DNA from: Methanocaldococcus indicus
GTDB taxonomy: Archaea > AGJL01 > Methanococci > Methanococcales > Methanocaldococcaceae
NCBI RefSeq assembly: GCF_049554935.1
Contig: NZ_CP186926.1
Span: 928,001 to 992,000 of the forward strand
Length of the DNA: 64,000 bases
Direction: 5' to 3'
A program made the translations under genes and the position numbers. Below the pieces are notes generated by a model that saw only the letters and a list, made by a program, of their open reading frames with translations, had not been told where the DNA came from and made no database searches. Shown here piece by piece: positions 37,281-37,881 of this stretch; the stretch's first letter is position 1, and every line of letters begins with the position of its first letter.

Positions 37281-37796
37281 ATGGATAATTATTTAGAAGA
37301 TGAGCTTATAATTAGAGGAATTGAGATAAATTATCTCTATGTATGCAAAACAAAGCTATTTTATTTTATAAAAGGTATAACAATGGAACAAGAGAGTGAT
37401 TTTGTTGATTTAGGAAAATTTTTGCATAGAAAAAGTTACTTTGGAGAAGAAAAAGAAGTTCAAATAGGTAGTATAAAGATAGATTTTATTAGAAATTCAA
37501 ATGGAATTATTGAGATACATGAAATTAAAAAAAGTAAATCAATGGAAAAAGCTCATATTATGCAAGCTCTTTACTATATTTACTATTTAAAAAAATTAGG
37601 TTTAGAATCAATAGCAGTAATAAATTATCCAAAACTTAAAGAAAAGAAGATAGTAGAATTAACTCAAAAAGATATTTTAGAGTTAGAAAAGGCTTTAAAT
37701 GAAATTAATAAAATAAAATCAATGAAAGAACCACCAAATCCAGAATATAAAAAAATTTGTAAGAATTGTGCATACTATGAGTTATGTTTTATATAA
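37281..37796 (+). CDS. cas4: Cas4 nuclease
   Basis: N-terminal Cys plus CKNCAYYELC 4Fe-4S ligands; KIDF, HEIKK, QALYY RecB motifs. Confidence 0.95.
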   Translation: MDNYLEDELIIRGIEINYLYVCKTKLFYFIKGITMEQESDFVDLGKFLHRKSYFGEEKEVQIGSIKIDFIRNSNGIIEIHEIKKSKSMEKAHIMQALYYIYYLKKLGLESIAVINYPKLKEKKIVELTQKDILELEKALNEINKIKSMKEPPNPEYKKICKNCAYYELCFI

Positions 37797-37881
37797 GTGA
37801 GATTATGAGTTTCCAGAGCAGCTACAACTCTCCCCTGGATATACACCCATGAGTTATGTTTTATATAAGTGAGATTATGAG
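37777..37881. repeat. 33-bp direct repeat flanking a 39-bp unique insert at the cas4-cas1 junction
   Basis: atgagttatgttttatataagtgagattatgag at 37777-37809 and 37849-37881; insert at 37810-37848. Confidence 0.95.

Follow-up and report, generated by a model that had tools for sequence, protein, structure and literature searches.

Integration of DNA outside CRISPR arrays by the adaptation enzymes is known mainly from induced laboratory systems, and two cases come closest to the locus presented here. In Escherichia coli, off-target integration was reported to spawn 'neo-CRISPR' arrays (Nivala et al. 2018, as described in 10.1101/148544), and the natural evidence for neo-CRISPR, from two other species, is called circumstantial there. 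For Pyrococcus furiosus Cas1-Cas2, full-site integration at non-CRISPR sites was obtained in vitro (Grainy et al. 2019, PMC6698737). In that study the leader-repeat junction is given as a main determinant of integration, and the off-target sites, which share its features, are described as repeat-like, with GTT at positions 1-3, an A-rich middle block and G/C 30 bp apart (PMC6698737).

We analysed a window of 64,000 nucleotides of the genome of the heat-loving methanogen Methanocaldococcus indicus (contig NZ_CP186926.1, positions 928,001 to 992,000 of the forward strand), in which 72 additional bases, made up of a spacer-sized insert and one copy of a repeat-sized duplication, occupy the junction between cas4 and cas1. 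We consider it probable, at roughly 60%, that these 72 bases were left by a single ectopic spacer integration carried out by the organism's own Cas1-Cas2 integrase, probably together with Cas4.

Structure of the cas4-cas1 junction

The genome consists of a 1.41-Mb contig and a second contig of 22 kb (1.44 Mb in total). Pfam matches reveal a type I-B-like cas operon on the plus strand of the window, comprising cas6 (30121-30879), cas7 (33211-34116), cas5 (34132-34908), cas3 (34908-37271), cas4 (37281-37796; Cas_Cas4, E 1.6e-54) and cas1 (37877-38845; Cas_Cas1, E 7.7e-85). A further plus-strand gene (31641-33194), which has the size of a large-subunit gene, received no assignment. The cas2 gene (38842-39105; CRISPR_Cas2, E 1.5e-22 for the minus-strand translation) is encoded on the minus strand, convergent with cas1, and the stop codons of the two genes overlap. 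The same convergent orientation was observed in nine related loci, and an inversion of cas2 specific to this strain was therefore rejected. Cas1 is encoded by a sole gene, as the whole genome gave a single PF01867 match, and one integrase thus serves both of the repeat types present in the CRISPR arrays of this organism.

At the end of cas4 begins an exact direct repeat of 33 nt, ATGAGTTATGTTTTATATAAGTGAGATTATGAG, whose two plus-strand copies (37777-37809 and 37849-37881) are 100% identical and lie 72 nt apart, measured from start to start. The copies enclose a 39-nt insert, the putative ectopic spacer (37810-37848, plus strand), with the sequence TTTCCAGAGCAGCTACAACTCTCCCCTGGATATACACCC and a G+C content of 0.51 as compared with 28% for the genome. 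Copy 1 comprises the last six sense codons and the stop codon (37794-37796) of cas4, the product of which ends normally within this copy (...CKNCAYYELCFI), followed by a decoy cas1 ribosome-binding site and ATG. In copy 2 the cas4 end survives as a non-coding relic, and behind it lie the working ribosome-binding site and ATG (37877) of cas1, from which translation gives a Cas1 N-terminus, MRKKSLT, that is the same in the relatives with which we compared it. Because the duplication spans both the stop codon of cas4 and the start signals of cas1, the two genes stayed intact, and their products match the Pfam profiles over the full length (positions 2-160 of 160 for Cas4 and 2-282 of 283 for Cas1). 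This intactness is probably the reason why the insertion could persist.

The distance between the cas4 stop codon and the working cas1 ATG was 8 nt before the insertion and is 80 nt after it, and a decoy start with its own ribosome-binding site is now located upstream of the real one. The decoy opens a new ORF of 15 codons on the plus strand (MSFQSSYNSPLDIHP, 37805-37852), which stops 24 nt before the real cas1 ATG. These changes may influence the translation or expression of cas1. The duplication, the GC-rich insert, the survival of both genes and the 15-codon ORF had all been described in the first-pass annotation of this DNA, which proved correct on them in every detail. The insert does not possess terminal inverted repeats, and no Rfam family was found at the junction in five loci at E up to 1. 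A promoter and terminator scan returned nothing above shuffled sequences, a result of little value for an archaeon, as the scan is of a bacterial type.

The empty site and the origin of the insert

The structure was checked against sequencing reads using Logan contigs of run X1. This run is probably the source sample, so that the Logan assembly is independent but the underlying reads are not. Positions 37780-37878, including the entire insert, are spanned by a 99-nt piece with a depth of 29, whereas the duplicated 33-mer forms a separate piece with a depth of 60, about double that of the flanks (23-28). No piece that skips the insert was found among the contigs of this run. Short exact repeats can mislead assemblers, but with an insert-spanning piece at normal depth and a 33-mer at twice that depth, an assembly or sequencing artefact is extremely unlikely.

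The empty site was found in three metagenome runs from another study (X2, X3 and X4). Their contigs join position 37776 directly to 37849, skipping exactly 37777-37848, and otherwise differ from the window at 2 of 567, 5 of 754 and 3 of 350 aligned nucleotides, respectively; the insert and one copy of the duplication are thus missing from contigs that are more than 99% identical to the window and represent strains of the same species. Among 16 related cas loci, 11 have the junction as a single-copy sequence, with a gap of only 12-17 nt between cas4 and cas1, four contain a different, larger insert, and one is cut by the end of its contig. The single copy without insert that the first-pass annotation had expected of related genomes was therefore seen in most of them. 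From the empty site in nearly identical contigs and the single-copy outgroups it follows that the 72 bases are a gain, and this gain is recent and strain-specific or polymorphic; the earlier description of the integration as fixed was wrong. A search of metagenome contigs with Cas1 yielded no contig of the same species (best identity 84%).

The insert appears to be foreign to the genome in which it resides. No second copy was detected in the 1.44-Mb genome at up to six substitutions, and a BLAST search of 40 relatives with a 61-nt query gave a best E value of 0.008, which we treated as chance; this match lies inside a housekeeping gene for an AcnX swivel domain in one relative (G036). The insert also resembles, at 25 of 30 positions and with E 0.15-0.3 in each genome, the antisense strand of 23S rRNA genes of a sister genus; for the organism's own 23S the match is only 17 of 22 positions. 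Both the 23S antisense strand and the gene of G036 were set aside as sources, their likeness to the insert being at chance level. In phage and plasmid collections the best E values were 3 and 7, and an exact 24-mer had zero matches in each of three contig collections (viral, metagenome and genome). Random genome segments are as similar to the insert as the existing spacers are. The comparison with viruses, plasmids and the host genome that the first-pass annotation had proposed thus gave no donor, and consequently neither a protospacer nor a PAM.

We also scanned the genome outside the arrays for pairs of direct repeats with a length of 24-40 nt and a gap of 28-50 nt, a search of the kind that the first-pass annotation had proposed. 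Three pairs were obtained. Only the pair at the junction is perfect, and only this pair encloses GC-rich DNA; the others are tandem repeats of AT-rich sequence within coding regions. The scan thus turned up no comparable pair elsewhere in this genome.

Probable ectopic spacer integration and rival explanations

Twelve CRISPR arrays and one degenerate array beside cas2 were identified in the genome, with repeats of two types, 31 and 30 nt in length. Spacers measure 32-48 nt in 82 of the 85 inter-repeat intervals, the commonest lengths being 36-38 nt, and 15 of the 85 are 39-41 nt long. The array periods range from 62 to 78 nt, with a period of at least 72 in six of 85 cases, and the median G+C content of the spacers is about 0.31, with values of at least 0.49 in only three of 85. 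In the array located in the window (7259-7703, minus strand), seven exact 31-nt repeats alternate with spacers that measure 42, 38, 38, 38, 36 and 36 nt, as the first-pass annotation had read it (repeat of 31 nt, spacers of 36-42 nt); a degenerate eighth repeat lies at the trailer end (7189-7219). The degenerate mini-array beside cas2 (39164-39329, crRNA strand taken as minus) contains one full 30-nt repeat and two truncated copies, and scored 36.9 bits with the Rfam model CRISPR-DR13, for which the cut-off is 37; the conserved leader lies to its right, at approximately 39330-39440. All the arrays have this highly conserved leader in common, and it ends with ...AAAATGTGCCTCCT directly before the repeat.

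The period of the junction unit and the length of its insert agree with these values. A perfect target duplication of 33 bp surrounds 39 nt of unrelated DNA; the period of 72 is inside the array range of 62-78, and the insert, 39-41 nt long depending on the true cut sites (a true duplication of 31 or 30 bp would leave 41 or 42 nt), is inside the spacer range of 32-48 nt, so that the size argument of the first-pass annotation holds. With cas4, cas1 and cas2 intact, a plausible enzyme is present, and the uniqueness of the structure in the genome and the absence of an own-genome copy of the insert are likewise consistent with the capture of a foreign prespacer. An additional feature was found on the leader side. 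The sequence ATTGTGCATACT (37765-37776, plus strand), which abuts the duplication upstream and coincides with the cas4 codons for the C-terminal Cys cluster, is identical to the leader-end consensus of the 12 arrays, AATGTGCCTCCT, at nine of 12 positions and at eight of the last ten. The resemblance is in line with PMC6698737, where off-target sites share features of the leader-repeat junction. With both strands counted, 1085 of 2,872,916 genome positions (3.8e-4) match the leader end at nine or more of 12 bases, and the chance of such a flank, allowing for about six choices of orientation and boundary, is roughly 2e-3, for a comparison that is post hoc, made after the sequence had been seen.

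From these features we infer that Cas1-Cas2 was the enzyme and propose the following course of events, in which the order and the exact position of the cuts are tentative. The integrase, carrying a foreign prespacer of about 39-41 bp, would have been drawn to the leader-end-like sequence in the 3' end of cas4 (TGTGC.T.CT, immediately in front of the cut). It would then have joined the prespacer to the target in two strand transfers staggered by roughly the length of a repeat, and gap filling would have duplicated the 31-33 bp between the cuts. The event was presumably neutral enough to persist and would have left a scar of one 'repeat-spacer-repeat' unit. Since the duplicated sequence is unlike a CRISPR repeat or a Cas6 substrate, the unit is not expected to yield crRNA. 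Nor does the junction look like a functional CRISPR array, as it holds a single unit, with no Rfam CRISPR-DR match at E up to 1 and with a repeat unlike those of the genome.

Several observations argue against integration by Cas1-Cas2. The duplication is 33 bp long as compared with repeats of 30 and 31 nt, and under a strict ruler two or three bases at the spacer ends would have to match the flank by chance. By our rough estimate, such a coincidence has a probability near 10% if the ruler measures 31 bp and near 3-4% if it measures 30 bp; the alternative is a slip of the ruler. Nor does the duplicated segment resemble the repeats more closely than random parts of the genome do. Without gaps it reaches at most 12 of 31 and 12 of 30 identical positions to the two repeat types, as do 91-92% of 2000 random genome 45-mers, and it does not begin with the GTT of the repeat. 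The G+C content of 51% and the period of 72 fall in the upper tails of their distributions. Finally, no protospacer was found, and a rival process places GC-rich insertions at the same junction. The Cas1-Cas2 origin put forward in the first-pass annotation is partly supported, being strengthened by the sizes, the empty site and the leader-like flank, and weakened by the 33-bp length, the target that is not repeat-like, the missing protospacer and the rival process.

This rival process involves a GC-rich element with two hairpins, which was found at the cas4-cas1 junction in four of the 16 related loci (G007, G008, G009 and G014) and in two metagenome contigs (L059 and L060, the copy in L060 being clean). 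At the junction the element is about 73 nt long and has the terminal 57-68 bp of cas4 on either side, in copies that have diverged; its left boundary is within about 2 nt of that of the present insertion. The family occurs throughout the genus. Fifteen of the 17 genomes have matches, 1-33 in each, with three copies in the genome described here, which is counted among them, and the element measures 59-85 nt in the 12 copies for which the length was determined. Direct repeats of 20-64 bp, usually a gene 3' end with its stop codon, border 15 of the 25 full-length copies that we inspected, and for four of these 15 they are CRISPR or CRISPR-like repeats. The four include three arrays of one relative (G016), where the element takes up the spacer slot nearest the trailer, with a CRISPR repeat on each side. 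The lineage therefore appears to possess a second, unexplained process by which GC-rich DNA comes to lie between long target duplications.

Because this second process produces GC-rich inserts with long duplications, Cas1-Cas2 is the best explanation of the 72 bases but not the only candidate. That the mechanism which mobilises the two-hairpin elements made the insertion, with an atypical or truncated cargo, is the main rival reading, but an unlikely one. Such an origin would fit the wide distribution and the conserved consensus of the family, the length of the duplication, which is inside the 20-64 bp range of the flanking repeats, the occupation of the same junction with nearly the same left boundary, and the G+C content of the insert, which also has a 9-mer, CCTGGATAT, in common with the linker of one family copy (L006). 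However, the insert is 39 nt long rather than 59-85 nt and lacks both hairpins, its plus strand folding with -5.8 kcal/mol (z -1.3) as compared with -28 for a family member. A search with the family profile (nhmmer, --max, E up to 10) recovered the three known copies in the genome, few as they are, and nothing at the junction, and no relative matched the insert better than the E value given above. Nor could decay account for these differences, the event being too recent, as is seen from a duplication that is still perfect and from strains more than 99% identical in which the site is empty. The insert is thus not, by its sequence, the remnant of a known mobile element, the outcome that the first-pass annotation had named as speaking against its reading. 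The same facts bear on the notion that the insert is the decayed relic of the larger hairpin-element insertion of the relatives, which the common junction, the nearly identical left boundary and the 9-mer of L006 might suggest. We rejected this notion as very unlikely: the site is empty in nearly identical contigs, the two 33-bp copies are identical, whereas the duplicated copies of the relatives have diverged, and the duplicated interval is 33 bp instead of approximately 57-68 bp.

An accident of repair or replication, in which 33 bp were duplicated through staggered nicks or a template switch and filler DNA was caught with no dedicated integrase, is unlikely as well. It would readily explain a duplication that is not exactly of repeat length, a duplicated segment without repeat-like features and the failure to find a protospacer, and the 25 of 30 positions in common with the 23S antisense strand, although a chance-level likeness, would suit a GC-rich filler of cellular origin. 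Yet filler is normally copied from the same genome, where the insert is absent and the resemblance to 23S drops to 17 of 22 positions. Furthermore, the sizes and the leader-like flank would have to be coincidences, and nothing similar occurs elsewhere in the genome. A combined explanation is conceivable but quite improbable, namely that Cas1 with a relaxed ruler, or a relative of it, moves both spacers and two-hairpin elements, and that the junction is a recurrent landing site for insertions made by staggered cuts. It is allowed by the 20-68 bp duplications of the elements together with the position of the elements of G016 in spacer slots. If it were true, arrays would be born from stray integrations, and the 72-bp unit and the arrays that contain elements would each show a moment of this process.

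Significance and comparison with known systems

If the 72 bases are an ectopic spacer integration, which we regard as the probable reading, the locus is a natural archaeal case of known off-target integration with both alleles observed. It would then be a natural example of a known phenomenon and not a new principle. Its value would lie in the exact sequence before and after a probable natural mis-integration, given by the filled allele and by the empty site in nearly identical populations. The leader-like motif TGTGC.T.CT, present by chance in the coding sequence of cas4, is a candidate target determinant that can be tested, and the junction provides a concrete substrate on which the type I-B-like adaptation complex of this group of methanogens could be studied in vitro. 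The locus also illustrates how DNA can enter between tightly packed genes without harm if the target duplication is long. If the enzyme was not Cas1-Cas2, the insertion would still be of interest and would belong with the unexplained long-target-duplication insertions of these genomes.

Insertion sequences and MITEs have terminal inverted repeats and generate target duplications of a few to about 14 bp. The present insertion resembles them in being flanked by a target duplication and differs from them in having none of the terminal inverted repeats and a duplication of 33 bp, so that we did not assign it to either class. Methanocaldococcus also carries GC-rich palindromic repeat elements at gene ends. 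Like these, the insertion is a small GC-rich one at gene ends in AT-rich DNA. The two-hairpin family described above, with its long flanking duplications, may correspond to these repeats; the insert has neither the hairpins nor the consensus of that family and is about half as long.

With P. furiosus the locus shares the archaeal host and a repeat of about 30 bp, and the leader-proximal bases, which match the leader end here, matter there (PMC6698737). In contrast to the off-target sites of P. furiosus, only the leader-side flank is similar in our case, and the duplicated segment is not repeat-like. The neo-CRISPR of E. coli is paralleled by a spacer-sized, apparently foreign insert between repeat-sized genomic copies, located outside the arrays of a genome with an intact adaptation module, although the duplication is here 2-3 bp longer than the repeat. 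Whereas the E. coli arrays arose with induced Cas1-Cas2, the insertion described here arose naturally, in a wild archaeal strain, and its empty allele was found in environmental populations. It is located within the cas operon, immediately in front of the only cas1 gene.

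cas2 and the adjacent degenerate array

In the window, cas2 lies on the minus strand (38842-39105) and is convergent with cas1, the stop codons of the two genes overlapping. A convergent cas2 is also present in nine related loci from the same genus and a sister genus, whereas in more distant relatives the gene is co-directional. The degenerate mini-array beside cas2 (39164-39440) has one full 30-nt repeat, after which come two truncated ones (…CATAAGAACAATGACGGTCTTATTTTAAC); the period is 67-68 nt, and the leader that comes after the truncated repeats contains a 13-nt tandem duplication (39350-39375). 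Since the leader and the degenerate array are located upstream of cas2 on the minus strand, the promoter in the leader may drive transcription of this gene.

Other features of the cas loci and arrays

Weak matches of zinc-ribbon-like type cover residues 83-114 of the Cas5 protein (gene at window 34132-34908); each of them scores below the Pfam cut-offs. In more distant metagenome relatives (loci L065, L067, L092, L097, L101, L102, L106 and L111), cas4 and cas1 are separated by ~810-835 nt, which suggests an extra gene at this junction.

The second contig of the source genome, 22 kb long and probably a plasmid, has a CRISPR array of its own (C2:10763-11139), with six repeats of the 31-nt type and the conserved leader. 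A few genuine spacers of this genome, among them those at C1:299439-299477 and C1:442128-442161, are GC-rich (49-62% G+C versus a background of 28%), indicating that GC-rich foreign DNA reaches its adaptation system.

The two-hairpin element at cas4/cas1 junctions and in arrays

Four related genomes, and also metagenome contigs, hold a GC-rich two-hairpin element at the cas4/cas1 junction (L004 2440-3030, L006 1090-1380 and L009 1990-2370, all on the minus strand; L010 1250-1560 on the plus strand; and L060 1271-1530), and at junctions carrying it the end of cas4 is duplicated over ~57-68 bp. Two related genomes contain additional nested sequences at the junction: an insertion of ~300 nt in G008, and in G014 an element with the terminal inverted repeats CACAGGGCTTTCACAG…CTGTGAAAACCCTGTG.

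In three arrays of the related genome G016 (L054 1480-1620, L042 1455-1600 and L030 1400-1620), what separates the degenerate terminal repeat from the next one is exactly the two-hairpin element, which fills the trailer-most 'spacer' position. In another relative, G010 (L043 1435-1620), a short CRISPR-like repeat is found in one copy on each side of the element.

Distribution and flanks of the two-hairpin family

The element is ~59-85 nt long and is spread genus-wide (loci L026-L054 in relatives), with compensatory changes in the stems. Outside the window, the source genome has copies at C1:1054117-1054198 (minus strand), C1:499766-499845 (plus) and C1:442461-442542 (minus). Imperfect direct repeats of 20-64 bp, made of local AT-rich sequence, flank 15 of the 25 full copies; the repeated segment is usually the 3' end of a gene, including its stop codon. 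Palindromic elements have been reported in M. jannaschii, and the two-hairpin family may be equivalent to them.
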